The notes beneath the pieces are model-generated. The model was not told the origin of the DNA, ran no database searches, and saw only the letters and a list, made by a program, of their open reading frames with translations. From Candidatus Latescibacterota bacterium (lineage in GTDB: Bacteria > Latescibacterota > UBA2968 > UBA8231), in the NCBI GenBank assembly GCA_965248265.1, contig CBDFJF010000001.1, positions 2,496,001-2,560,000 of the forward strand: DNA of 64,000 nucleotides, in the 5' to 3' direction. Made by a program: the position numbers and the translations under genes. How positions within the stretch are numbered: position 1 is the stretch's first letter; each line of letters begins with the position of its first letter. Positions 23,368 through 35,370 of the stretch are shown here, one piece after another.

Positions 23368-24201
23368 TCAGTCCAGCTGGCGGCGCTTCACCCACAGAAT
23401 GAGAAGGTTGACGGCGATGAAAACCCAGATGGAGGCAACGGCCATTTGACGTTGCTCGCCGACCACCTCGTGCTCGTCGACAAGCTCCTGTGCTGCCACG
23501 AGCTCGCTCGCGATCGAGGCAAGGCTCCGGTCAGTTACTTCGACGGACATGGCGTGGGTGCCTGCTCCCGCGTCGGTAAGTGCCGTGCGGGCGGCCGCCA
23601 CCAGCGGCTGCGCCCTGCGCAGACTGCGATCCATCGTCGCCAGGCTGTCGACGATCGTCGACATCGCCACGAGTTGCGCGGCGGCCTGGCGCAAGTCATT
23701 CCGTATCGCCAGGCCAGTGGCCAGCTCTGACGATCCTGTTTCGTGACAGGGCGAGCAAGTCGTGTCCATCATGGCCGGCTCGGCTCCGCGCACGTCGTGA
23801 TTGCTGTGGCAGCTTATGCAGGTCGGATTCTTTGAATCGTTCCAGTCAGCGTGAGGCCCTTGGGCGAAGAACCTGACGGAAGCCACATGACAGGTGCCGC
23901 AGACGCGTACTATGTCCTGCCGCTGTGGGCGGCCGATGAAGCCGGTCCCCGGCGCCTTGGCAAGATCGTTGTCGGCCTCAAAGGGCAAACCCCCATGGCA
24001 GTCGTTGCACAGCAGCAGACCGGAGTGGAAATGGATGCTCTGGGCGAACGCCTCACCCTGTTCATAGTGACACAGGGCGCATGCAACGTCATCGAGATCG
24101 ACCTCGGGGGCGGCTATGGCAGCAGTCACGCCGAGCGCGAAACAGGCCGGGCTCAGCCAACGCAGCAACTGATCTGACCGGTTCCGCCTGCTCGCACTCA
24201 T
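23368..24201 (-). CDS. membrane-anchored pentaheme cytochrome c
   Basis: Five CxxCH motifs (CALCH, CNDCH, CGTCH, CISCH, CSPCH), a signal peptide, a helical region and a C-terminal TM helix. ATG overlaps the cytochrome b TGA. Confidence 0.88.
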   Translation of the reverse strand: MSASRRNRSDQLLRWLSPACFALGVTAAIAAPEVDLDDVACALCHYEQGEAFAQSIHFHSGLLLCNDCHGGLPFEADNDLAKAPGTGFIGRPQRQDIVRVCGTCHVASVRFFAQGPHADWNDSKNPTCISCHSNHDVRGAEPAMMDTTCSPCHETGSSELATGLAIRNDLRQAAAQLVAMSTIVDSLATMDRSLRRAQPLVAAARTALTDAGAGTHAMSVEVTDRSLASIASELVAAQELVDEHEVVGEQRQMAVASIWVFIAVNLLILWVKRRQLD

Positions 24202-25445
24202 GGGCCGGTTTGTTCGGAGGCTGATTCGTCGACGAGATGCGGTATCCCACGCATGTCGAAGTGGTAGGCCTTGCCCATGACGGTCCTCGTCGTCTCTGAC
24301 AAATGCCCGAGCACCCCCAACACCACAACCACGGCTGCGACCACCGTCATCCCGAGAATAACTCGCGGCCTCCGGCGCGGGTGGCGCTCGGGGGAGATGT
24401 CGATGACCAGGGGCAGCGCTACCAGGAGGAGGAGGAGGAGCGGCGGAACATGCACGCCGACGGCCTCGGGAACGTACTTGAGCAACTGGTACGCCGGCAG
24501 GAAGTACCACTCGGGCTTGATTCCCAGGGGGGTGACCAGGGGGTCAGCACGGTCTCCAAGATGGGGAGGCAGCAGCAGGGCGAGGGTCAGCAGCACCCCC
24601 GTCACCAGATAAACCGTCGTCAGATCTTTCAGCGTGTGATTCGGGTAGAACGGCTCCCCGCCAGCCTGGGAAACATCATGGGCGGGCGGTTCCGTTTCGT
24701 CCGTCCGGGTCAATGGCGAAATGCCCTGATAGCGGACCAGGACCAAGTGCAGGGACACCATGCCCAGCAGCGCCAACGGCAGCACGAATACGTGAATGAC
24801 GAAGAAACGGCCCAGGGTCGAATCGGCCACTTCGGTACCGCCGATCATGAACTGCTGAATCGCGGGTCCCAGAACCGGTATCGATGCCGGCGCTTCGGTC
24901 GCGACGACGGTGCCCCAATAGGCGACCTGGTCCCAGGGCAGCAGGTACCCGGTAAATCCAAAAATGAGGATGATCGCGAGCAGAGCCACGCCGATGATCC
25001 ACGTAACCTCTCGCGGGCGTTTGTAGCCGCCATAGGCGAACACCCTGGCCATATGCAGGAGAGCGACGATGATGATGAGGTGGGAACCCCAGCTGTGCAT
25101 GGAGCGCATCAGCCAGCCCAACGGAATGTCGGTTATGATACGCTCGACGCTGGCGTAGGCTTCGCGCGCGCTCGGCTTGTAGTACACCATCAGCAGGGCG
25201 CCGGTCAGCAGTTGGATACTCAGCAGAGCCATCAGGGCCGAGCCCAGAGTGAACGTCCAGTTGACGTGGGCGGGGACCGGCTTGGTGAGGTTGGCGCCGA
25301 GTCGTTGCGCCAGGTGACTCGCCGGAAAGCGATCGTCCAGCCACTGCCACAAGGGAACGAGCACTCGAGCCCACACTAGCTGTCTCAATGTACTACCGAC
25401 GGATCGCGACTCATGAGATGGGCTTGGCCCGGAGGCCCGCCTCAT
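24198..25445 (-). CDS. cytochrome b subunit of a Rieske/cytochrome b complex (unsplit)
   Basis: Four heme His ('RSMHSW', 'LHMARV', 'VIHVF', 'SLHLV'), 'GYLLPWDQ' and 'KPEWY'. The true start is probably TTG 25389 or GTG 25377. Confidence 0.92.
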
Positions 25446-25860
25446 CGACGACGATTTCTACGCGACTCAAAGGGTCTCTGGCGGGACCGCGCAGCACTTC
25501 ACCCAGCAAGTTATAGCGGGCTCCGTGGCATGGGCACTCGACCTGCTCAACCTCCGAGTTCCACGCTACCGTGCAGCCCAGATGCGTGCAGGTGGCCTGA
25601 ATGCCGATGAACTCGCCGTTCGGGCGGCGCAGAACCAGGATCTTGCCCAGATCATTGCGGGCTACCACGCCCTGGTTGGCGGCTAGCGCGTCCGGGGACA
25701 ATGGCTCGCCTTCGCTCCCGCGCAGCAGGTCCGAAGTGGCAGCACCACTGCGCAACGGCCACAGATAGGCCAGGATAGTACCCAGAAAGCCACTGAGGCT
25801 TCCCAGCATGCCTACGCCGAGAAGGAGATTCACGACGCGGCGTGTGAGGGATGGTTTCAA
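25411..25860 (-). CDS. Rieske [2Fe-2S] protein
   Basis: 'CTHLGC' and 'CPCHG' boxes; N-terminal 'TRR' followed by a TM helix. Confidence 0.93.
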
Positions 25861-25885
25861 ATCAGGCCACGGGAACGCATCACCG

Positions 25886-25913
25886 GGCTCGCGGGCGCGA
25901 TCGCCCGCGAGCC
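25886..25913. other. perfect 12-bp GC-rich stem-loop within the operon
   Basis: GGCTCGCGGGCG-CGAT-CGCCCGCGAGCC. Confidence 0.75.
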
Positions 25914-25959
25914 ACAGTTTAGCTATCGCCCGATAATCTCAGAGAGAGGTCGGCGCCGA

Positions 25960-26400
25960 TCAGCGCAGGAGCTTGCTGATCACGGATTTTACCGAAGCCC
26001 ACGTCGATTCTTCGACGGCGGTCGATACCATTTCGGGCGGATGACTGTCGGCATCGCCGGGAAAGTAGACTTCGTCCATTTCTGGATTGTCATCCCCGAT
26101 TGCCCAGGTGCCCTCTGGATCCCCCAGCTCTTCGCCGTTGGTGTAGCCGTCGCCATCCGAATCGATGGCAGCCAGTTCAGCCCCCCACACGACATCGAAC
26201 CCCGACAGAAAGTTCTCCTCGATTTCCAGGCCGAAAGAATTGCGCGCATCGCCTCCAGAAGCACTCATGTGGCAATTCAGGCAGTTGTTCACGGTGCCGT
26301 TCGGGATCTGTCCCGGCCTGTGAGCTCGACCGTCCACCTGCGAGGGCAGAGTGAGTGCGACCAGACCCAGGACCAACGTGCAGGAAATAATGCGTTTCAA
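25960..26400 (-). CDS. small secreted protein with one CxxCH motif, temptin-like core and a C-terminal 'STWASVK' tail
   Basis: Signal peptide; 'IPNG...CLNCH...GGDARNSFG...DSDGDGYTNGEELGDP...W'. TTG start with AGGAG RBS. Confidence 0.75.
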   Translation of the reverse strand: MKRIISCTLVLGLVALTLPSQVDGRAHRPGQIPNGTVNNCLNCHMSASGGDARNSFGLEIEENFLSGFDVVWGAELAAIDSDGDGYTNGEELGDPEGTWAIGDDNPEMDEVYFPGDADSHPPEMVSTAVEESTWASVKSVISKLLR

Positions 26401-26711: not shown

Positions 26712-27755
26712 ATGACGCCGTCTTCGCCAGCTCCCAGCAGTCCCCATGAGCACAGGGAAGTTATCGGTGTTCTGTTGGCACAACTAGGAACCCCGGCGGC
26801 ACCTACAGCTTCTGCATTGCGACCCTATCTGCGGCAGTTCTTGTCCGACCCGCGGGTCGTCGATCTGCATCCATTGAGGTGGTGGCCGATTCTATATGGC
26901 ATCGTCCTGACCTTGCGCCCCGCTCGCTCGGCTCGTCGGTACCGCAACATCTGGCAGAAGGATGGGTCGCCGTTGATGATCTACTCACAGCAACAGACGG
27001 CCCTCTTGCAGCAGCAATTGGGCGATTCCTTCAGAGTCGTCCTCGGCATGCGCTATGGCCAACCCAGCATCGACGTGGCCGTTCGTGAGCTGCTGTCGCA
27101 GGGCATCGATCGCATCCTCCTGTTCCCGATGTTCCCCCAGTTCTCATGTGCGACCACCGGGTCGGTCTACGACGCCGTCTACGACGCCCTTCAGGGACGC
27201 AACGGGCCCTGGAGTTTCGAACGCCGCCGGTCGATGCCGGCTCTTCGTATCGTTCCGCCCTACTACGACCACCCCGCCTACATCGACAGTCTCAAGGGTA
27301 CGATAGAGGAGACGGTGACGTCCGCGATGCACCCGCCCGAGCGCTATCTGTTCACCTTCCATGGGATTCCGCGTCGGTATGTCGAAGAAGGCGATCCCTA
27401 CCGCTGGCAGTGCGAAGAGACGGCCCGCCTACTGGCGGCGAGTCTTGAGTTGGACTCAGATAGTTGGCTGGTGGGTTTTCAATCCCGCTTCGGCAAGGAG
27501 CCGTGGCTGGAGCCCTACACCGAGGAGGAGCTGGTTCGTCTAGGACGCGACGGTGTGCGCCGCCTGATCGCCGCCTGTCCGGGGTTCACGGCGGACTGTC
27601 TCGAAACTTTGGACGAAATCGGCAGGGAGGGGGCCGAGCAGTTCGCCGAGGGTGGTGGACGGGAACTCACCCTGGTGCCATGCCTCAACACCCATCCGAC
27701 TTGGATCGAGGCGATGGCGCAGATCACCCGCGAGAACAGCAACGGTTGGGCCTGA
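26712..27755 (+). CDS. hemH: ferrochelatase
   Basis: 'LAQLGTP', 'FLSDPRV', 'MRYGQP', 'FHGIP', 'FQSRFG..PWLEP' and 'DCLETLDEI' motifs. Confidence 0.95.
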   Translation: MTPSSPAPSSPHEHREVIGVLLAQLGTPAAPTASALRPYLRQFLSDPRVVDLHPLRWWPILYGIVLTLRPARSARRYRNIWQKDGSPLMIYSQQQTALLQQQLGDSFRVVLGMRYGQPSIDVAVRELLSQGIDRILLFPMFPQFSCATTGSVYDAVYDALQGRNGPWSFERRRSMPALRIVPPYYDHPAYIDSLKGTIEETVTSAMHPPERYLFTFHGIPRRYVEEGDPYRWQCEETARLLAASLELDSDSWLVGFQSRFGKEPWLEPYTEEELVRLGRDGVRRLIAACPGFTADCLETLDEIGREGAEQFAEGGGRELTLVPCLNTHPTWIEAMAQITRENSNGWA

Positions 27756-27788: not shown

Positions 27789-29198
27789 TCACGTCTGTGC
27801 GGCGGCGGCCTGTTCCTTTTCTGAGAATACCCGCCCTGCGTAGCGGGCAGCCACTATCCACACCAGCAGAATCGCAACGGTCGCCAACGACAGCCAGCGC
27901 ACATTCTCGAAGCCGGCGAACCATGTAGCGATCACCAGATTGATGCCCACGGCCACAGCCTTGGCAAAGCGCTGGATGAACATGTCGATGAAGGCCTTAG
28001 CCTTGTATTTCTCATCCCGTGTCGTAGGCACGTACAACACTTCCTTGGCCGACTGGTTGATCGAATAGCTGAAACCGTTGTCGGTCGTGTTCAGAAAGCT
28101 GCCCAGCAGTAGGCCGGGAACGATCAGAAAACCGGCCGAGCCCAGACAGGCGGCGACCGGCAGGAAGAGCAGCGCCACGCCCACACCAAATCGAACCATC
28201 ACGAAGCTGGTCAAGAAAAGCTGCACGACTAGAGCGACTCCGTTGGTGAAGGAGTACACCCTTGGCCAGTGCGTGTAGTGATCATCTCCCAGATAATGGA
28301 ACACCGTGTCCGTGAACTGAAAATCCATGATGGTCGAAACCATTTCGTACAACCCGACGATGGCCATGATCGACAGCAAATAGGGCGATCGGAAAACCAG
28401 CCGCGCCCCCTCCAATGCCGAACTGCCCTCCGGCTTTGCCTCTTCCTGATTGGTCGGCGCTGCTTCGGGAGGTGGATTGCGTTGCACCAACCGGCCAGCC
28501 ACCATGGCAATGAGGGCAATCAGCACCGCGATTCCCAGACAGATCCAGAGCCAAACCGAAGGACTCATCGACGATTTAACGTTGACGGCAACCACTGAGC
28601 TGCCGAAAAATCCTCCTACGACACCGCCCAACCCGATCAGTCCATACAGCCGCTTGGCGACGTCAGGTGTCACGCTGTCGTTCAGAAAAGCGAAGAACGT
28701 CACCACCATCAAGGTGCTGAAGAGGTCACCAAAGAGATAGAACGACCATGCCGTCCCGCCTCCGGGACTGTCCAGGACGAAACCGTAGAGTACGTAGGCG
28801 ACAATGAAGAACCCACAGAAGATATAGGTGAGTTGTTGGCGCCGGAGAGACCGGGCCAGAAAGGCAAAGGCCGCTGCTGCCGCGAAAGCCACGACCATGT
28901 TCATGACCTTCGCGACCTGCTCAGCCCCTGACGGCTGCAGTTGCCAACCCCACCAGTCGAAACCGGACTCGGCGATATAGCCGATGAAGACTCCCTTCTT
29001 GATCGGCTTCAGGATCCAGAAGCTGGTGATGACCAGGAAGAAATAGAGGAACATCAGCAGGGCCATCAGTCTCTCTTCGGGACGGAAGCCTGTGATCTGC
29101 TTTACGATAAAGGCGATAAAGATGGCGCCCAGGAGCCACCACCAATTCGCGAGAATGTCTGCGAATGCCTGGAAGAAAGTGAATCCGAATGATTCCAT
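27789..29198 (-). CDS. TLC/Npt (ATP:ADP translocase-like) MFS nucleotide transporter
   Basis: About 12 TM segments; 'FWILKPIK', 'AKRLYGLIGLG', 'MDFQF' and 'YSINQSAKEVLYVPTTRDEKYKAKAFID' motifs. Confidence 0.85.
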   Translation of the reverse strand: MESFGFTFFQAFADILANWWWLLGAIFIAFIVKQITGFRPEERLMALLMFLYFFLVITSFWILKPIKKGVFIGYIAESGFDWWGWQLQPSGAEQVAKVMNMVVAFAAAAAFAFLARSLRRQQLTYIFCGFFIVAYVLYGFVLDSPGGGTAWSFYLFGDLFSTLMVVTFFAFLNDSVTPDVAKRLYGLIGLGGVVGGFFGSSVVAVNVKSSMSPSVWLWICLGIAVLIALIAMVAGRLVQRNPPPEAAPTNQEEAKPEGSSALEGARLVFRSPYLLSIMAIVGLYEMVSTIMDFQFTDTVFHYLGDDHYTHWPRVYSFTNGVALVVQLFLTSFVMVRFGVGVALLFLPVAACLGSAGFLIVPGLLLGSFLNTTDNGFSYSINQSAKEVLYVPTTRDEKYKAKAFIDMFIQRFAKAVAVGINLVIATWFAGFENVRWLSLATVAILLVWIVAARYAGRVFSEKEQAAAAQT

Positions 29199-29273
29199 TT
29201 GCGCTCCAGTCTGTAGCGCTTCAGTTAGTAATTTTGACGACTATGCTACTGGACGTAGCCAGCAGCCACGCAC

Positions 29274-30959
29274 TCAGCTGTCGCGCTCGATTCGCACTAT
29301 GCGACTGCGCCCGTCGTCCCAGTTGTGGAAGTAGACTCGAATGGCCTTGCCCCAGTCGTCATCTCCACGACGGGTGCGGATTTCGTAGCCGTGAAAACCC
29401 GTGCGTAACCCTGGAGCTATGATGATGGCCGTCGGGATCACCGACCCCTGGCGCTCACCTGCCTCGCTTACCGCTTTTCCGGTGTCGTCGAGGAGGCGGT
29501 ACTGGTAACGCGTCTGATCCGCCGACTCCAGCCCGCCGCTGACGGCCAGATCCTCAAAGCGCAACTCGCCGTCAATCAGCTCGAAGTGATCCAGGGGATT
29601 GACCCTGGCATACCAGAAGCGACCGATCATGTCCCGCCTTTCGATGATGAGTCGGGCCAGTTCTTCGGCGGCGTCCGGGTTGGATAACAACCCTGTGCCG
29701 ACGATAGCGCGAATCTCCTCATCGGTGAAGGCCATGACGATTTTGGCACCCCAATATGCGTCACGGTTGGTGCAACGCTCGAAGGCCGGATTCGGATAGG
29801 TCGGCACCCAGCGCGCGGGTCGGAAGGTCGCATTCTCGAAATAACCGATCGAGGGGTACTGGATTGGCTGGGGTTCCTCCCAGCCTTTGCGGTAGAATCC
29901 AAGGGACACGATAGAAAGACCGATGGTGCGCGGGTCCCACACGTACTCGTTGCCGTACTTGGGCGGATGCGGCATCAGGTTGTTGCTACCGAAAGCCGAG
30001 CCCATGTCGATGAGGTAGTGGCGCACGTAGCGACGTGCGCCGTCCTCTTCGCTCACGTACATGTCAAGGGTGTTGGCGGCACGCCGATCGGCGTCGTTCA
30101 TCCACGAGCCGATCACCCTCAGACCCCGCAGCTCACGCCGGTGCTCGTGGTCGACCCGATCGTTGGAATCATCCTTACGGCGGCCGTGGTAGTCGAAAAT
30201 ACCAACAGGTTTGCCGGACAAAAACTTGCTTGCCACGCAACGCAGGCGACCATCCGCCTGGGGGATGATGTTGTCGAGGATCGCCTGCATGTCGCGCTCT
30301 TCCATCTTGCGCTTGCCGCCGCCTCGTTTTGGCACCTTGGCTTTGGGGCCGATCACGAGCCGCGATGGATCGAAGTAGACGACCGAATTTCGCGGTACGT
30401 TGTAGCCGGCCGCGTGCAGGAACTTGGTGGCGATTATCTCCGCCGAAGATCCCATCTCGTTGTTGCCTTCGGAATCGAATTTCAGCAGGTAGTACTGGCC
30501 AGACGCGTCCTTGATCGTGAAGCCGGCGGTGCCACCCTCGAACTTGCCCGCGACGATCTCCAACGGTCCAGAGTCATCCGGATGTGCCCATCCAGGTCCC
30601 ACCTCCAGCTCTTCGATCGACATCGGTTTCAGAAAATGGCGGTTCGTGTACCACGAAGAGCCGGGCACCTCGTCCAGAACATTGACGTTGTCCGCTTCAC
30701 GGGGCGGTGCAACCCGCAGGATGTTGCCGATGCGCCTGGTCGTCCACCCCAGGTCCAGCAATTTTCCCACCTGGAAAAAGAGGGTGTGATCGGCAATATC
30801 CCAGACCTGATTTTCCCTGATTTCAAGTGGCTCTGGCATGCTCTTGTTATCCGCGTCGAACCATTTGACTGGAGCGGTGGACAGATCCGGTTCTGCGCTT
30901 GCGGACCCCGCGAACGCCAGCGTACTCACCACAAGAGTTGTGGACCGCAGAACCCTCAA
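29274..30959 (-). CDS. exported protein with atypical (HipA/PI3K-like) kinase motifs
   Basis: Signal peptide ending 'AGSASA'; 'GGTAGF..YLLKFD', 'SAE', 'DADRRAAN' and 'LIDMG'. TTG overlaps the upstream TGA. Confidence 0.65.
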   Translation of the reverse strand: MRVLRSTTLVVSTLAFAGSASAEPDLSTAPVKWFDADNKSMPEPLEIRENQVWDIADHTLFFQVGKLLDLGWTTRRIGNILRVAPPREADNVNVLDEVPGSSWYTNRHFLKPMSIEELEVGPGWAHPDDSGPLEIVAGKFEGGTAGFTIKDASGQYYLLKFDSEGNNEMGSSAEIIATKFLHAAGYNVPRNSVVYFDPSRLVIGPKAKVPKRGGGKRKMEERDMQAILDNIIPQADGRLRCVASKFLSGKPVGIFDYHGRRKDDSNDRVDHEHRRELRGLRVIGSWMNDADRRAANTLDMYVSEEDGARRYVRHYLIDMGSAFGSNNLMPHPPKYGNEYVWDPRTIGLSIVSLGFYRKGWEEPQPIQYPSIGYFENATFRPARWVPTYPNPAFERCTNRDAYWGAKIVMAFTDEEIRAIVGTGLLSNPDAAEELARLIIERRDMIGRFWYARVNPLDHFELIDGELRFEDLAVSGGLESADQTRYQYRLLDDTGKAVSEAGERQGSVIPTAIIIAPGLRTGFHGYEIRTRRGDDDWGKAIRVYFHNWDDGRSRIVRIERDS

Positions 30960-32158
30960 AACTCCTGCTCCAATGAAAATCCCGTGAGCAGGCTCTCTTC
31001 CGCGCTGTGGGCGAGGCGCAATCCGAGAAGCAATCCGGTCTGCGAGCGCAGACTCATCCCGCCTCCGGTCGACGACACGAAGTTGCCGGTTTCGATATCG
31101 CCGTATTCATCGAACACCTGGCCCTCTTCGTGGAAGAGGAACGCGTTCCACGTATCCCAGACCGGCCATCGGTACTCAACCGCCAGCAGCAGCGAGCCCT
31201 GGCCACGCAGAGCACCACGCTCATACCCGCGCAGGCGCTGGCTGCCGCCCAGATGGGGCAGATCGGGGAATGGCACGAGGCCATCGTCGATGTCATGGAC
31301 TCTGTCCAGGCGCACTCGTCCGGCCAGGATGCGGTTGCGCCAGAACAGGGTTTGAAAACGCTGGGCCTCGGCGGCGAGGCGGACGAAGCGCGCCTCATCC
31401 GACCCGGTGACGTAATCGACCCCGGCCATCAACAGGTTGCCGCTTTCGGGGTAGAAGGTATCGCGAAATGAATGGTAGACGTCCTGGTGGTGGATCAACA
31501 TGCGCCCGGGGAAGTGGTAGTTTAACGGGTGCGACAGCGATCGCACCGGCTCCTCGAAGTCGCGGTCGTCGTATTCGATGGTGGCGCCCACCGTGAGAAG
31601 GGAGATCGACTTGCCCAATCCACCAAGCTGGCTCGCGGCGGGGGTGAGGCCGAAGGTACCGACTACAGGTGGTGTCGTCGGCACCTGTGTCGAGAAGTCC
31701 CTACGACCCCAGCCGAGGCGGCCCTCCACTGAAAAACCCTTGCTATACAGATGCAGGGGGCCGTCGTTCGAACGCCATCCCACCGTGGCCAGGATATCGG
31801 CACGCTCCACGGCGAACAGGGCTCCCAATCGGTCCTCGACGCTGCCGTTGGCAGTGGAGCCCTCGTCGTTCGTCTTGAGGTAATCAACTTCGACGTCCCA
31901 GTAGGTAGTTGCCCCTGCGAAGTCAGTGTATTGCAGCCACCCGCTGTGACGGTCGGCATCCCTGACCGTGTAGGCCGCGTTCAGTACGTGACTGCGACCG
32001 AAGAGGAACAGCTGAGCCCCGCCAGCCGTACTGGTCTCTCCGCCCAGCTGCACCTGCGGAAAGATCCCGAACGTCTGATCTTCGTTCATGAACCACTCAC
32101 GCACCTTTTTTGGCAGCTTCTCGTGCTCGGCGTAGATGGTCGCCTGGCCGAACGCTCC
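30956..32158 (-). pseudogene. Omp85/BamA-TamA-type barrel lacking its N-terminus (probable deletion junction)
   Basis: 'LGGSQRLRGY', 'EYRWPVW' and C-terminal 'EQEF'. There is no signal peptide, and the frame stays open upstream of GTG 32104 into the tail of the kinase ORF. Confidence 0.65.
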
Positions 32159-33435
32159 ATGTAGGCGGCCGCAGACGGATCGGAAAACTCACCGGCCGAA
32201 ACCGCCGCCGCGATCTGCTCATCGCTGAATGAGGTGACGATCTTGGCACCCCAGAAAGCGTCTCTCGCGGTCAGGTTCTCGAACGCGGGCACGGGGTACA
32301 TCGGTTTCCACTTGTCTGGCTTGAACAGGTCCGTCTCCAGGTAGCCGACGGAAGGGAAACGAACCGTCGCGGGCGCTTTTTCATACCCATGAACGTACAG
32401 TCCCAACGTTGCCAGGCGCATCAAGGAATCTTTCAGGTCGAAGCTGTTGGCCTGACCGCGTCTGGGGTTGCTCGGTTGGGTGCTGTTGCTGCCCATCGCA
32501 GCCCCGAAGTCGATCAGATAGTGTTTGAGGATGCGCGCTTCGGGGTCATAGGCATCGAGGGTATTCTCCTCCTTCATGTCAGCATGGTTAATCCAGGAGG
32601 CGATGACGTACAACCCGCGGATCTCCCGCCGATGTTCGTGCGGGAAGAGATCGTTGGGGTCGTCCTTTCGAACTCCAGTATAACGCCAGGGGCCAACGGG
32701 AACCCCGGGCAGGAAGAGGCTCGCCAGCGCCCGCACACTGCCCTGTCCCGGATTGACCCTGTCGAGGATGGCCGTGAGATCAGCCTGCGTCATGGTGCGT
32801 TCCTCGATCGGGTCACGTTTGTCCTCGGTGGCGACCTTGAGCACGGCTGCTGGATCGAGTTCCAGGCGCTTGGGATCCAGTTGGACGATGTAGTTTTCCG
32901 GCACGTTGTAACCGGCGGCGTAGAGCAGTCTGGAGGCGACGCACTCCGTGCCGCTGGACAGCTCGCGAAAATTGGGAGGATCGAACTTGATGATGTAGCG
33001 ACGCCCCGTGCGATCAACGATCGTTATCCCGGGAGTTACGCCCTCGGACTTCACCGACACCACGCGCCAGCGACCCGCTGCCGGTGGCCCAGTCACGTTT
33101 GGCCCTATCCTGATCTCTTCGATAGAAAGGGACTGACGAGCGTTGCGGTTGGTGAACCAGGAGTTATCGGGCACCTCGTCGAAGCGGTCGACATTGCGTG
33201 CCTGATAGGGACGGCCAACAAGCTTTCGCGTCAACCGCGGGGTATCGAAAACCTGCCACAGCTGGAGGCCGAAAGTCATCTCCAGTATTTCGTTTGCCAG
33301 CGACGGGTGACGGACCCTCGGCTTTGCCGGCAAAGGGCGGTCGTCACGCGGAATATTGCCGCTGGGCGGCGCCAACGCAGGCGCACAACCCACGCCAAAC
33401 AGCAACCCGATCATTCCCAGTGACGCAACGCGCAT
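32086..33435 (-). CDS. lipoprotein paralog of the atypical kinase-fold protein, C-terminally truncated
   Basis: Lipobox 'LFGVGC'; 'GVTPGI..YIIKFD', 'GTE', 'HADMKEEN' and 'LIDFG'. Similarity to 29274..30959 stops at about 32160. Confidence 0.65.
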   Translation of the reverse strand: MRVASLGMIGLLFGVGCAPALAPPSGNIPRDDRPLPAKPRVRHPSLANEILEMTFGLQLWQVFDTPRLTRKLVGRPYQARNVDRFDEVPDNSWFTNRNARQSLSIEEIRIGPNVTGPPAAGRWRVVSVKSEGVTPGITIVDRTGRRYIIKFDPPNFRELSSGTECVASRLLYAAGYNVPENYIVQLDPKRLELDPAAVLKVATEDKRDPIEERTMTQADLTAILDRVNPGQGSVRALASLFLPGVPVGPWRYTGVRKDDPNDLFPHEHRREIRGLYVIASWINHADMKEENTLDAYDPEARILKHYLIDFGAAMGSNSTQPSNPRRGQANSFDLKDSLMRLATLGLYVHGYEKAPATVRFPSVGYLETDLFKPDKWKPMYPVPAFENLTARDAFWGAKIVTSFSDEQIAAAVSAGEFSDPSAAAYMERSARRPSTPSTRSCQKRCVSGS

Positions 33436-33445
33436 GGCCTACCCG

Positions 33446-34687
33446 TCAGAACGTGGTGTTGAAGTTGAAGAGCATCCGCGTCAACTCGACACTGCGAGCG
33501 ACGGTGAACTCGAACACGACTCCTTCTGGCACCCACACCCGCACGCCGCCGCCGTACGAACGCTCCCAGTCGGCAAGGGTGATGTCGGCGAGTGTGTGGA
33601 ACGACCGTCCCGCCTCGTAGAAAACCGTGCCTTCGATCAAACGCCAGACCGGGAACTTGTAGCGTCCGATGGCGTACGTGAGACCGCGGTCGCGGAATCT
33701 CCCTCTCTTGAAGCCTCTCAGTGCCTCCGTTCCCCCAAGTGAAGCCAGGTCATAGAACGGGACTTCATTGCCGAATGGGGCGTAACGCCAATCGCTGCCC
33801 AACTCCAGCGCCAGCGTCCGTCTGTAGAACAACTCCAGGAACTGCTCCGTGAGGAACCCCGCCTTGATGTGCGAAAAATCGTCCTCGTCGACTGACTGGC
33901 TGTAGGCCAGCTTGAGTCGTGTCCGGTTACCCCTCGTCGGGCTGCCCGGGACATCGACGAATACGCCCTTCACCTGCACGCCGGCCTGCACGAAATGGGC
34001 CCGATTGTCCAACCCTGGCAGTTCAGTCGCATGCCTAACGATGGTGGAAGGATAGAGGTCGTTCTCACCTCGACCGACATCCCTGGTGTGATAATCCGCT
34101 TCCCAACTGAACTTGATGCGACCGCGCGTTTGTTGTGCCTGGGAAACCTGCAAGTGAAAATCCCGCTGCCGGAAGACGGTCCGGTCTGCATCGTCCGTGG
34201 CCTGACCAATGCCGTGGAAACTCTCATTCGGCTCACTGGCGTAGCGGATACTCACCATTGTGCCTGTGGGAACTGCCAATGTGAGGAGATGGTGTTGACG
34301 GTTCTTGGATGATGCTCCCAGGCTGGAGGTGATCTCAGCGTCGGCGCCGCCCACCAGGTCGTTGTAGAACACGCGCGCGCCACCACCCCGCAAGGTGCTT
34401 GCCATCGGTCTTACCCCGACCCGGCCGTCAGCGAACGTCAGGTAGGCTTTCACACGGTCCAGCAAGCGCTGTTCCCACACGGCTGTAGCCAACCTGCGAG
34501 CTCCATACCCGGTAATCTGAAACGGCAGGTAGACGATGCGCCCCGGTATTGTCGTCGCCTCTTCGAGTCGCGATCGATGCAGCACGCGAGGCGGAAAGGC
34601 TGACGTCGAATCGACGACGGCCTCGATGTCAGCGTCCAGCTGCGTCGCCAGGCCCAGCACGATCAACACGAGTGCGCAACGTTTCAT
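33446..34687 (-). CDS. Omp85/BamA-TamA-type outer-membrane barrel with no obvious POTRA domains
   Basis: Signal peptide, 'LGGTEALRGF..GRFRD', 'FYEAG', 'SYGGGVR' and a C-terminal Phe. ATGA overlap with the upstream gene. Confidence 0.8.
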   Translation of the reverse strand: MKRCALVLIVLGLATQLDADIEAVVDSTSAFPPRVLHRSRLEEATTIPGRIVYLPFQITGYGARRLATAVWEQRLLDRVKAYLTFADGRVGVRPMASTLRGGGARVFYNDLVGGADAEITSSLGASSKNRQHHLLTLAVPTGTMVSIRYASEPNESFHGIGQATDDADRTVFRQRDFHLQVSQAQQTRGRIKFSWEADYHTRDVGRGENDLYPSTIVRHATELPGLDNRAHFVQAGVQVKGVFVDVPGSPTRGNRTRLKLAYSQSVDEDDFSHIKAGFLTEQFLELFYRRTLALELGSDWRYAPFGNEVPFYDLASLGGTEALRGFKRGRFRDRGLTYAIGRYKFPVWRLIEGTVFYEAGRSFHTLADITLADWERSYGGGVRVWVPEGVVFEFTVARSVELTRMLFNFNTTF

Positions 34688-35370
34688 GGAGTCCCGCCGC
34701 CCTTCTGGCTTCCGTCGACGGCAGTCGCCACCCACTCCACCACGTCGCGCAGGCATTCCTGGTTGATTTCGTGACCCATGGAGTATTCGTGGTACTTCAG
34801 CCGGACTGGCGTCTGCGCCACCACGTCGCGGGCGGCATGACTCTGCTGGATGGAGATGACCGGATCGTGACTGCCGTGGGTCATGATGATGGATGTGGCT
34901 TGCAGTACCCGCAGAACATCCGGATCGGCCGGTGTCATCTCAGGAGCAAACACGCCGCTGAGTGCTATCACGTTTGTCGTCGTGTCCGGAGCACGGTAAG
35001 CGACCGCCAGAGCCATGGCCGCGCCCTGGCTGAATCCCAGCAGGAGTGTGTTGGACGCATCGTTGCCGTGAAAAACTTGCTGACTGCGGACAACCTCGAT
35101 GAGGTCCTCGCGCGCCTGCTCCACATCCTCCCGCTCGATCTTCACCCCCGCCTCCGTGAACTCCAGTGGAAACCAGGCATGGCCGCCCTGGGGCAGATCG
35201 ACTGGCGCTCGGATGCTTACGACACGTAAGCGTGGGTCGAAGTACGCTCCCAACGCCATCAGGTCTCGCTCGTCCGCGCCGTACCCGTGCAGGATTATCA
35301 AGAGGGGATTGACGCCATCCGATACGGATGATCGCGGCTCTTCGGTTACGTAGTATGGATTGCCGTTCAA
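34684..35370 (-). CDS. phospholipase/carboxylesterase (alpha/beta hydrolase)
   Basis: 'LHGYG', 'GFSQG', 'HGSHDPVI' and 'MGHEI' motifs. Confidence 0.9.
   Translation of the reverse strand: MNGNPYYVTEEPRSSVSDGVNPLLIILHGYGADERDLMALGAYFDPRLRVVSIRAPVDLPQGGHAWFPLEFTEAGVKIEREDVEQAREDLIEVVRSQQVFHGNDASNTLLLGFSQGAAMALAVAYRAPDTTTNVIALSGVFAPEMTPADPDVLRVLQATSIIMTHGSHDPVISIQQSHAARDVVAQTPVRLKYHEYSMGHEINQECLRDVVEWVATAVDGSQKGGGTP

Follow-up and report, generated by a model that had tools for sequence, protein, structure and literature searches.

An Omp85 barrel, an exported kinase-like protein and a nucleotide-translocase-like carrier encoded together in Latescibacterota and other bacteria

The periplasm is taught to be free of ATP, and the phosphoryl transfers known to occur there use lipid-linked donors. 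Eukaryotic kinases of the secretory pathway, such as Fam20C and FJX1, are fed by a lumenal ATP carrier. Here we analyze a stretch of 64,000 nucleotides from a Candidatus Latescibacterota bacterium (hereafter, the window), in which a minus-strand gene run encodes two Omp85 barrels (A and B), two exported proteins with kinase-type motifs that belong to one family without a name (K1; kinase A and kinase B) and a carrier of the NTT/TLC family (TLC1). Comparison of related loci showed that a barrel and a K1 protein are regularly encoded together, in a substantial share of cases with TLC1, and that in other genomes TLC1 also stands beside a second exported kinase-like family (K2). Such an arrangement is like the Fam20C/FJX1 system in that kinases placed outside the cytosol need a carrier bringing ATP across the membrane, and both Fam20C and FJX1 were among the nearest named clusters of two K1 homologues in the Atlas, along with HipA_2, PI3_PI4_kinase and LepB_N (scores 0.78-0.81, a lead only). 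Unlike in that system, K1 has no detectable Pfam relation to Fam20C (neither Fam20C nor CotH matched any of 72 K1 members), K2 matches it only weakly, and the carrier is of a different family.

The closest described proteins are HipA/HipA_2 and PI3K/PI4K, with which K1 shares the order and spacing of the Gly-rich loop, the ATP-binding Lys, the helix-C Glu, a putative catalytic-loop DxxxxN motif and a putative metal-binding Asp. Unlike HipA, K1 is exported (signal peptide or lipobox), lacks a HipB-like partner and stays below the Pfam cut-offs. It also has a conserved N-terminal region of about 120 residues, an insert of about 70 residues that bears the invariant motif DDxND..H..RxxR, and a C-terminal domain. 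The pattern of a cytoplasmic toxin with a HipB antitoxin was not found, as most K1 members are exported and the neighbours of K1 are a barrel and a carrier. The pairing with the barrel is reminiscent of TpsB/TpsA and LptD/LptE, in that the gene of a 16-strand-type Omp85 barrel adjoins that of its presumed partner. In contrast to TpsB/TpsA, the barrels of the module have no detected POTRA domain and K1 has no TPS domain.

For the carrier, the nearest precedent is an operon of free-living bacteria comprising an NTT-HEAT fusion and a cNBD protein, noted by Major et al. in 2017 with no function given in the parts of PMC5381601 considered here. Likewise, many of our related loci have genes for an NTT-HEAT fusion and a cNMP-binding protein after TLC1. 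The word 'periplasm' is absent from the main text of PMC5381601, where 'kinase' and 'Omp85' were not searched for. The supplementary trees of that paper may show the place of TLC1.

Another point of comparison is the periplasmic metabolism of lipid A phosphates by LpxT and LpxE. In one K1 relative of 782 amino acids (aa; P0252), a PAP2 domain replaces the usual C-terminal domain, and this domain of the natural fusion matches the lipid A 1-phosphatase LpxE (6ebu; 2.1e-04). In 6 of 79 loci there are also PAP2-like genes in the vicinity of K1. A link of K1 to lipid A would be conjecture, and the phosphate donor of LpxT is undecaprenyl pyrophosphate rather than ATP, as stated in a portion of PMC2229476.

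Literature searches (supplements not covered) returned no description of K1, K2 or the module, and a 2026 preprint on new kinase-like families (10.64898/2026.09.18.752743) deals, in the part considered, with other families. The parts of the system of barrel, K1 and TLC1 fall into known superfamilies, but as a system it has no described bacterial counterpart, and its mechanism, set out below, is a proposal.

Linkage of barrel, kinase-like protein and carrier

To map related loci, we ran tblastn with six window proteins on 79 loci from contigs of one genome per species. A barrel gene lies on the same strand within 500 bp upstream of 61 of the 71 K1 genes that have at least 1 kb of upstream sequence; in three of the ten exceptions the barrel stands about 1.1 kb from K1, with a Metallophos gene in between in two of them. 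Among the 72 K1 genes with at least 1.5 kb of downstream sequence, a TLC-like gene follows within 600 bp in 26 and within 5 kb in 38. Chance adjacency of K1 and TLC would be well under 1%, because this genome has only three TLC-family genes in 7.3 Mb. Under several phylum labels the same order recurs, namely, barrel, K1, sometimes a Metallophos lipoprotein, TLC1, a TLC-HEAT protein of 900-1000 aa, a cNMP-binding protein and a response regulator. Between loci that carry different phylum labels, TLC1 orthologues share 58-71% identity. The third TLC-family gene of this genome (G000:C1:105314-106366) is a 416-aa frame, 23% identical to the TLC-HEAT query.

We then surveyed 151 genomes of the phylum, calling K1 at E ≤ 1e-30 and TLC1 at E ≤ 1e-80. 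K1 was found in 34 of them and TLC1 in 22, all of which are among the 34; none of the 117 genomes without K1 has TLC1, and the two genes are adjacent in 18 of the 22. The conserved linkage that a sequence-only reading of the window had led one to expect is clear for barrel and kinase and substantial for the carrier, and the idea behind that reading survived those of its refuting conditions that were examined. For a reciprocal test, 80 TLC1 loci were collected from metagenomes, and the 41 with at least 1.2 kb of upstream sequence were counted: K1 lies immediately upstream in 9, K2 in 15 and neither in 17. The remaining 39 loci were too short to count, although a partial K1 is visible in 2 of them and a partial K2 in 7. 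In four of the TLC1 loci without a kinase-like gene upstream (L133, L166, L174 and L176), a PPDK_N/PEP-utilizers protein of about 970 aa and a beta-lactamase-like gene adjoin TLC1, divergently in three of the four, and in three of the four a pseudouridine synthase follows TLC1. A fusion of about 740 aa between a sodium:dicarboxylate symporter and a family-3 solute-binding domain occurs in six loci (L146, L148, L160, L169, L177 and L185), five with K2-TLC1 pairs and one (L177) with TLC1 but no kinase upstream.

K1 is a large family, with 3704 clusters at 50% identity (E ≤ 0.001) and more than 1724 protein matches, of which the 120 listed are all without a Pfam domain or name. Its closest relatives are labelled Latescibacterota, and the record labels also include Gemmatimonadota, Calditrichota, KSB1, Rhodothermales and other Bacteroidota, Ignavibacteria, Marinimicrobia and Poribacteria. 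Numbered as in kinase B, the residues K160, D291, N296 and D318 hardly vary among 72 diverse members, and D264, D267, H271, R275 and R278 are invariant in the same set; the former four residues and the helix-C Glu are invariant in 35 K1 relatives. The kinase landmarks that had been picked out from the sequence in both window proteins are present and conserved. An N-terminal hydrophobic stretch is found in 225 of 236 full-length members; 89 of the 236 have a lipobox according to our own pattern, and by eye a lipobox is seen in most of the 55 paired genes. When natural fusions of barrel and kinase were sought, one candidate of 955 aa (P0256) was rejected, since its N-terminus is by eye glycosyltransferase-like and contains no barrel. 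In this protein the glycosyltransferase-like half is followed by a lipobox-like stretch and then K1, and it may be two genes called as one.

K2 proteins are exported, about 350 aa long and encoded beside TLC1. A lipobox, two invariant Cys and the motifs KWK, HxDxKxxN and IDNG are common to the eight members that were aligned, and none of the 556 relatives found carries a Pfam domain. PI3_PI4_kinase matched 16 of 50 K2 members (best 7.6e-04) and Fam20C matched 4 of 50 weakly (best 0.021); the match of one member spans residues 200-250, which by position contain the catalytic-loop and IDNG motifs. Profile comparison of K2 with the HipA sets gave no match, that with K1 aligned only the lipobox, and a sequence search against the PDB gave no match. 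No barrel was detected in K2 loci. K2 was not found in the genome that contains the window, in a search that had no positive control and so shows little.

Exported phosphatases recur around both families. Metallophos lipoproteins stand beside K1 in 10 of 79 loci (this genome has only a weak relative of this neighbour), which adds to the PAP2-like genes mentioned above. Y_phosphatase3 lipoproteins occur in four of eight long K2 loci; in two their genes come right after TLC1 on its own strand, and in the other two they are found 1 to 7 kb downstream on the other strand. Two exported kinase-like families that stand beside one carrier are thus accompanied by exported phosphatases from three superfamilies, which points to a phosphate mark that is set and removed outside the cytoplasm. 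Together with the PAP2 link, the PI3K/HipA-like folds provide a hint, and no more, that the substrate might be a lipid or glycolipid.

The rearranged copy in the window

The six open reading frames (ORFs) of the run follow one another head to tail along the minus strand, at the positions first assigned to them, and Pfam or NCBIfam names four of them, namely, the esterase, both barrels and the carrier. The features, in the direction of transcription, are as follows.

34684-35370, minus strand: esterase (Abhydrolase_2), 228 aa; PF02230 at 1.6e-27
33446-34756, minus strand: ORF of barrel A (Omp85), 436 aa, with a likely start at Met24 that gives 33446-34687; PF01103 at 1e-07
32086-33435, minus strand: ORF of kinase A (K1 family), with native residues 1-428 at 32152-33435
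32086-32151, minus strand: joint and out-of-frame tail of kinase A (21 codons)
30956-32151, minus strand: barrel B (Omp85), 5'-truncated, with its ORF at 30956-32104 from a GTG; PF01103 at 1.9e-09
29274-30959, minus strand: kinase B (K1 family), full length, 561 aa
27789-29198, minus strand: TLC1 (NTT/TLC carrier, 12-helix), 469 aa; PF03219 at 1.1e-22

Kinase A and kinase B are indeed paralogues (42% identity, 6e-106), and they are the only K1 copies in this genome (7.3 Mb, two contigs). Kinase A has the lipobox-like signal LFGVGC, a Gly-rich loop at 128-137, K150, D286-N291 and D309. Kinase B has a signal peptide without Cys, the conserved N-terminal region, a HipA-like core at about 120-345 (GKFEGGTAGF at 138-147, K160, D291-N296 and D318) and a C-terminal domain of about 110 aa. 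Both barrels exceed the Pfam cut-off of 24 bits for the Omp85 domain (32.3 bits for A and 37.9 for B), no POTRA family was found in either at E ≤ 1, and both are far below the cut-offs of the BamA and TamA models, so that their description as POTRA-less Omp85 barrels stands. A barrel orthologue from another locus (L063) reaches 90.7 bits for Omp85, with no POTRA at E ≤ 0.01. Barrel A shows a signal-peptide-like stretch after its likely start Met24 (34687).

The window contains a rearranged copy of a widespread module, in which two barrel-kinase pairs adjoin through a joint at 32151. The last 21 residues of kinase A are barrel B DNA read out of frame, and the protein ends some 110 residues before its relatives, the C-terminal domain of about 110 residues typical of the family being gone. 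The frame of barrel B is -1 relative to that of kinase A; homology to barrel orthologues extends 5' of its first in-frame start, the GTG at 32104, into the 3' end of kinase A and then stops. From this GTG barrel B has no signal peptide, which was lost through the rearrangement, and is 60-90 N-terminal residues short of its orthologues; it is probably not exported. The run had been read as tightly coupled by ATGA/TTGA overlaps, and the ORF coordinates confirm these for esterase/barrel A (ATGA, counted from Met24) and barrel B/kinase B (TTGA). What looked like an overlap of kinase A and barrel B is the rearrangement joint and not operon coupling. Similarly, the idea of a dedicated barrel for each kinase fails in this window because barrel B is truncated. 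Of the module genes in this genome, barrel A, kinase B and TLC1 alone appear intact.

Contigs of public sequencing runs were compared with window positions 31400-32900. In two runs from the probable source sample, contigs cross the joint with 0 differences. Two runs from a different study contain a near relative; in them, one contig fits 31400-32151 with 4-5 differences and another fits 32151-32900 with 30 differences, and both diverge from the window exactly at 32151, indicating that kinase A was joined to a 5'-shortened barrel B by rearrangement. The 30-letter loose ends of these contigs, translated by eye, continue the family motif ..LIERRDMIG.. on the kinase side and precede the barrel side with ..WLVYPI-GQ.., as in orthologues. 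The identity of the relative to the window is about 99.4% on the barrel B side (4-5/752) and about 96% on the kinase A side (30/750); the history of one side of the joint may differ from that of the other.

Gene order elsewhere gives some idea of how the joint may have arisen. In a related locus (L016), an efflux pump is followed by barrel, K1, TLC1, TLC-HEAT, cNMP-binding protein, response regulator and histidine kinase, with the A-type pair on the opposite strand. In the genome studied here, TLC-HEAT and the genes after it stand directly behind an RND efflux operon 1.9 Mb from the window. Given both arrangements, transfer of barrel B, kinase B and TLC1 as a unit fits the data. The distant operon (L089; G000:C1:~633,000-645,700) encodes an outer-membrane efflux protein, a HlyD-type adaptor and an AcrB-type pump, then TLC-HEAT (914 aa), a cNMP-binding protein, two response regulators and a PAS histidine kinase. 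Here lies the portion of the extended operon that the window lacks.

A run of six A (32108-32113) lies between the out-of-frame tail of kinase A and the GTG of barrel B, and no evidence of a ribosomal shift was found there. A frameshift at this run that would fuse kinase A to barrel B was rejected: the joint itself is out of frame, and the homology of barrel B begins upstream of the run in the other frame.

The esterase, which had been counted as part of the gene run, is outside the conserved module: it has no counterpart in the 79 related loci (a singleton when 80 loci were clustered), and no signal peptide was seen in it by eye. Two nearby segments (window 23368-26400 and 26712-27755) were read by eye: the minus strand just downstream of the carrier has genes for a multihaem cytochrome, a cytochrome b-like protein, a Rieske-type protein and a small cytochrome c, and between these and TLC1 lies a ferrochelatase-like ORF on the plus strand.

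Fold, proposed mechanism and alternatives

Sequence profiles make it likely that K1 has a kinase-like fold with a HipA/PI3K-like core, and within this range K1 is probably HipA-like. We scanned 72 K1 members against 24736 Pfam models at E ≤ 10. HipA_2 (PF20613) matched 12 members (best 7.4e-05) and HipA_C (PF07804) 11 (best 0.0073); APH, PI3_PI4_kinase and each of the other 20 of the 24 listed families matched one. The HipA_2 matches are colinear, with profile positions 4-92 on residues ~121-213 and 105-155 on 260-310, and it is the latter segment that one member matches at 7.4e-05. Kinase A matches HipA_C over residues 132-187 (0.031; 14.3 bits against a cut-off of 30.5). For profile comparison, a HipA alignment was built from E. 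coli HipA and 29 HipA_C proteins from genomes of the phylum (30 in total). Using hhalign, the N-lobe of K1 (family residues 120-200) aligned with this set at 84.6% probability (E 6.8e-06), placing K160 on HipA K181, the Gly-rich loop on VAGAQEK and AGYNVP on LGLNVP. The Lys-Asp and Asp-Asp spacings are 131 and 27 in K1 versus 128 and 23 in HipA.

TLC1 scores 80.9 bits against the Pfam TLC model (PF03219; cut-off 21). Its motifs AKRLYG and KYKAKAFID appear similar to NTT signatures. As for the direction of transport, an NTT has been proposed to pass ATP outward in a ciliate endosymbiont, according to a part of PMC7969357, which offers a precedent.

The reading of these observations that we favour, although we give it slightly less than an even chance, is a mechanism in which several steps are proposed, namely, that TLC1 supplies ATP to the periplasm, where K1 phosphorylates an envelope substrate and phosphatases reverse the reaction. 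TLC1 would carry ATP as its cargo and move it outward, swapping cytoplasmic ATP for periplasmic ADP. K1, kept at the outer membrane with or by the barrel, which it would contact, would then act as a kinase on an envelope substrate, perhaps a lipid or glycolipid, and the exported phosphatases encoded beside K1 in other genomes would remove the mark. The ATP supply gains support from the second exported kinase-like family and the exported phosphatases beside the same carrier. A broader and more tentative reading may be entertained, in which, in several phyla, an NTT that exports ATP in return for ADP feeds at least two unrelated families of lipoprotein kinases (K1 with a barrel and K2 without), Metallophos, PAP2 and Y_phosphatase3 proteins serve as erasers, and the reversibly phosphorylated envelope target is a lipid, glycan or protein.

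A number of results weigh against the proposed mechanism. ATP in the periplasm should leak out through porins. No TLC-like gene was found within 5 kb of 34 of the 72 K1 genes; in the phylum, 12 of the 34 K1 genomes lack TLC1, and K1 is broken in only 4 of these 12; and 17 of the 41 counted TLC1 loci have neither kinase-like gene upstream. Related genomes are not independent, and the numbers above are plain counts. TLC1 reaches just 76 bits against the NCBIfam NTP/NDP exchanger model (TIGR00769; cut-off 387.2), so that its reading as a TLC/Npt-like carrier passes Pfam but falls far under the exchanger cut-off; moreover, characterised NTTs all come from parasites or organelles, as summarised in the parts of PMC5381601 considered here. 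The kinase fold first suggested for both exported proteins agrees with the HipA_2, HipA_C and N-lobe profiles, yet every Pfam kinase match of K1 is below the gathering score (the best, to HipA_2, has 22.6 bits versus 27) and kinase B itself matches no Pfam family. Full-length hhalign of a K1 query (homologue A2) against a narrow HipA_2 alignment was not significant (0.28% probability), the C-lobe of K1 alone matched nothing in the HipA set, and a PDB sequence search with kinase B and homologue A1 returned no match. Other comparisons gave little more: A2 matched neither single HipA nor single HipA_2 sequences, our own HipA_2 profile reached at best E 0.017 among 271 K1-family proteins, and the only PDB match of A2 was a weak one of its C-terminal domain to an Ig-like chain (0.012).

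Among the alternatives, the one that survives best, while still unlikely, is that barrel and K1 form a pair for surface display or secretion, the Omp85 barrel exporting the K1 lipoprotein or anchoring it at the cell surface, in the manner of a TpsB or LptD-type barrel and its partner. There K1 would act on outside substrates or serve only for binding, and the TLC genes would be part of a signalling or transport unit of their own (TLC-HEAT, cNMP-binding protein and response regulator) that travels along and is tied to the pair through regulation only. Consistent with this, the barrel is the tightest neighbour of K1 (61/71 versus 26-38/72 for TLC), the TLC-HEAT/cNMP/response-regulator unit is separable, as its position 1.9 Mb away behind the RND efflux operon shows, a third of the K1 genomes of the phylum (12/34) do without TLC1, and K2 loci have the carrier with no barrel detected. 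It does not account for the restriction of TLC1 to K1 genomes in the phylum sample (22/22 versus 0/117) or for its presence behind a second, unrelated exported kinase-like family, and a mere binding protein would not need the nearly invariant Lys, Asp, Asn and Asp. The occurrence of TLC1 where K1 or K2 is found, together with the conserved catalytic-type residues, argues against both this alternative and the scavenging one considered last.

It is also rather improbable that K1 is no kinase at all and has another fold, its motif order and weak HipA matches being convergent or fortuitous. The sub-threshold statistics keep this possibility alive, since all matches are below threshold, the full-length comparison with HipA_2 failed and no PDB sequence was matched. 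It has to be set against the fact that, out of 24736 Pfam models, HipA_2, HipA_C, APH and PI3_PI4_kinase (the latter two of which we take to be members of the protein-kinase clan) provide 25 of the 45 member-hits, that the HipA matches are colinear over both lobes and that the N-lobe match puts the Lys of K1 on HipA K181.

Equally improbable is a role in scavenging of nucleotides or organophosphates, with the barrel admitting the compounds, phosphatases and K1 processing or binding them and TLC1 importing nucleotides, for although all characterised NTTs are importers (PMC5381601, in the parts considered here) and the exported neighbours of Metallophos, PAP2 and Y_phosphatase3 type might act as nutrient phosphatases, it leaves a conserved phosphotransferase active site without a role, a general importer should not be limited to K1 genomes, the phosphatases occur in a minority of loci only, and the neighbour clusters show no recurrent gene for a nuclease or for phosphate uptake.

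If the proposed supply of ATP to envelope kinases by TLC1 is true, the view of an ATP-free periplasm would be overturned across much of the FCB group and in its neighbours. The finding would also put a name to two large unknown families (3704 and at least 556 clusters, respectively) and would provide the first function for the NTT carriers of free-living bacteria, a question open since 2017 in the parts of PMC5381601 considered here. In the broader reading, with two kinase families and dedicated exported phosphatases, bacteria would have their own equivalent of the kinases of the eukaryotic secretory pathway.

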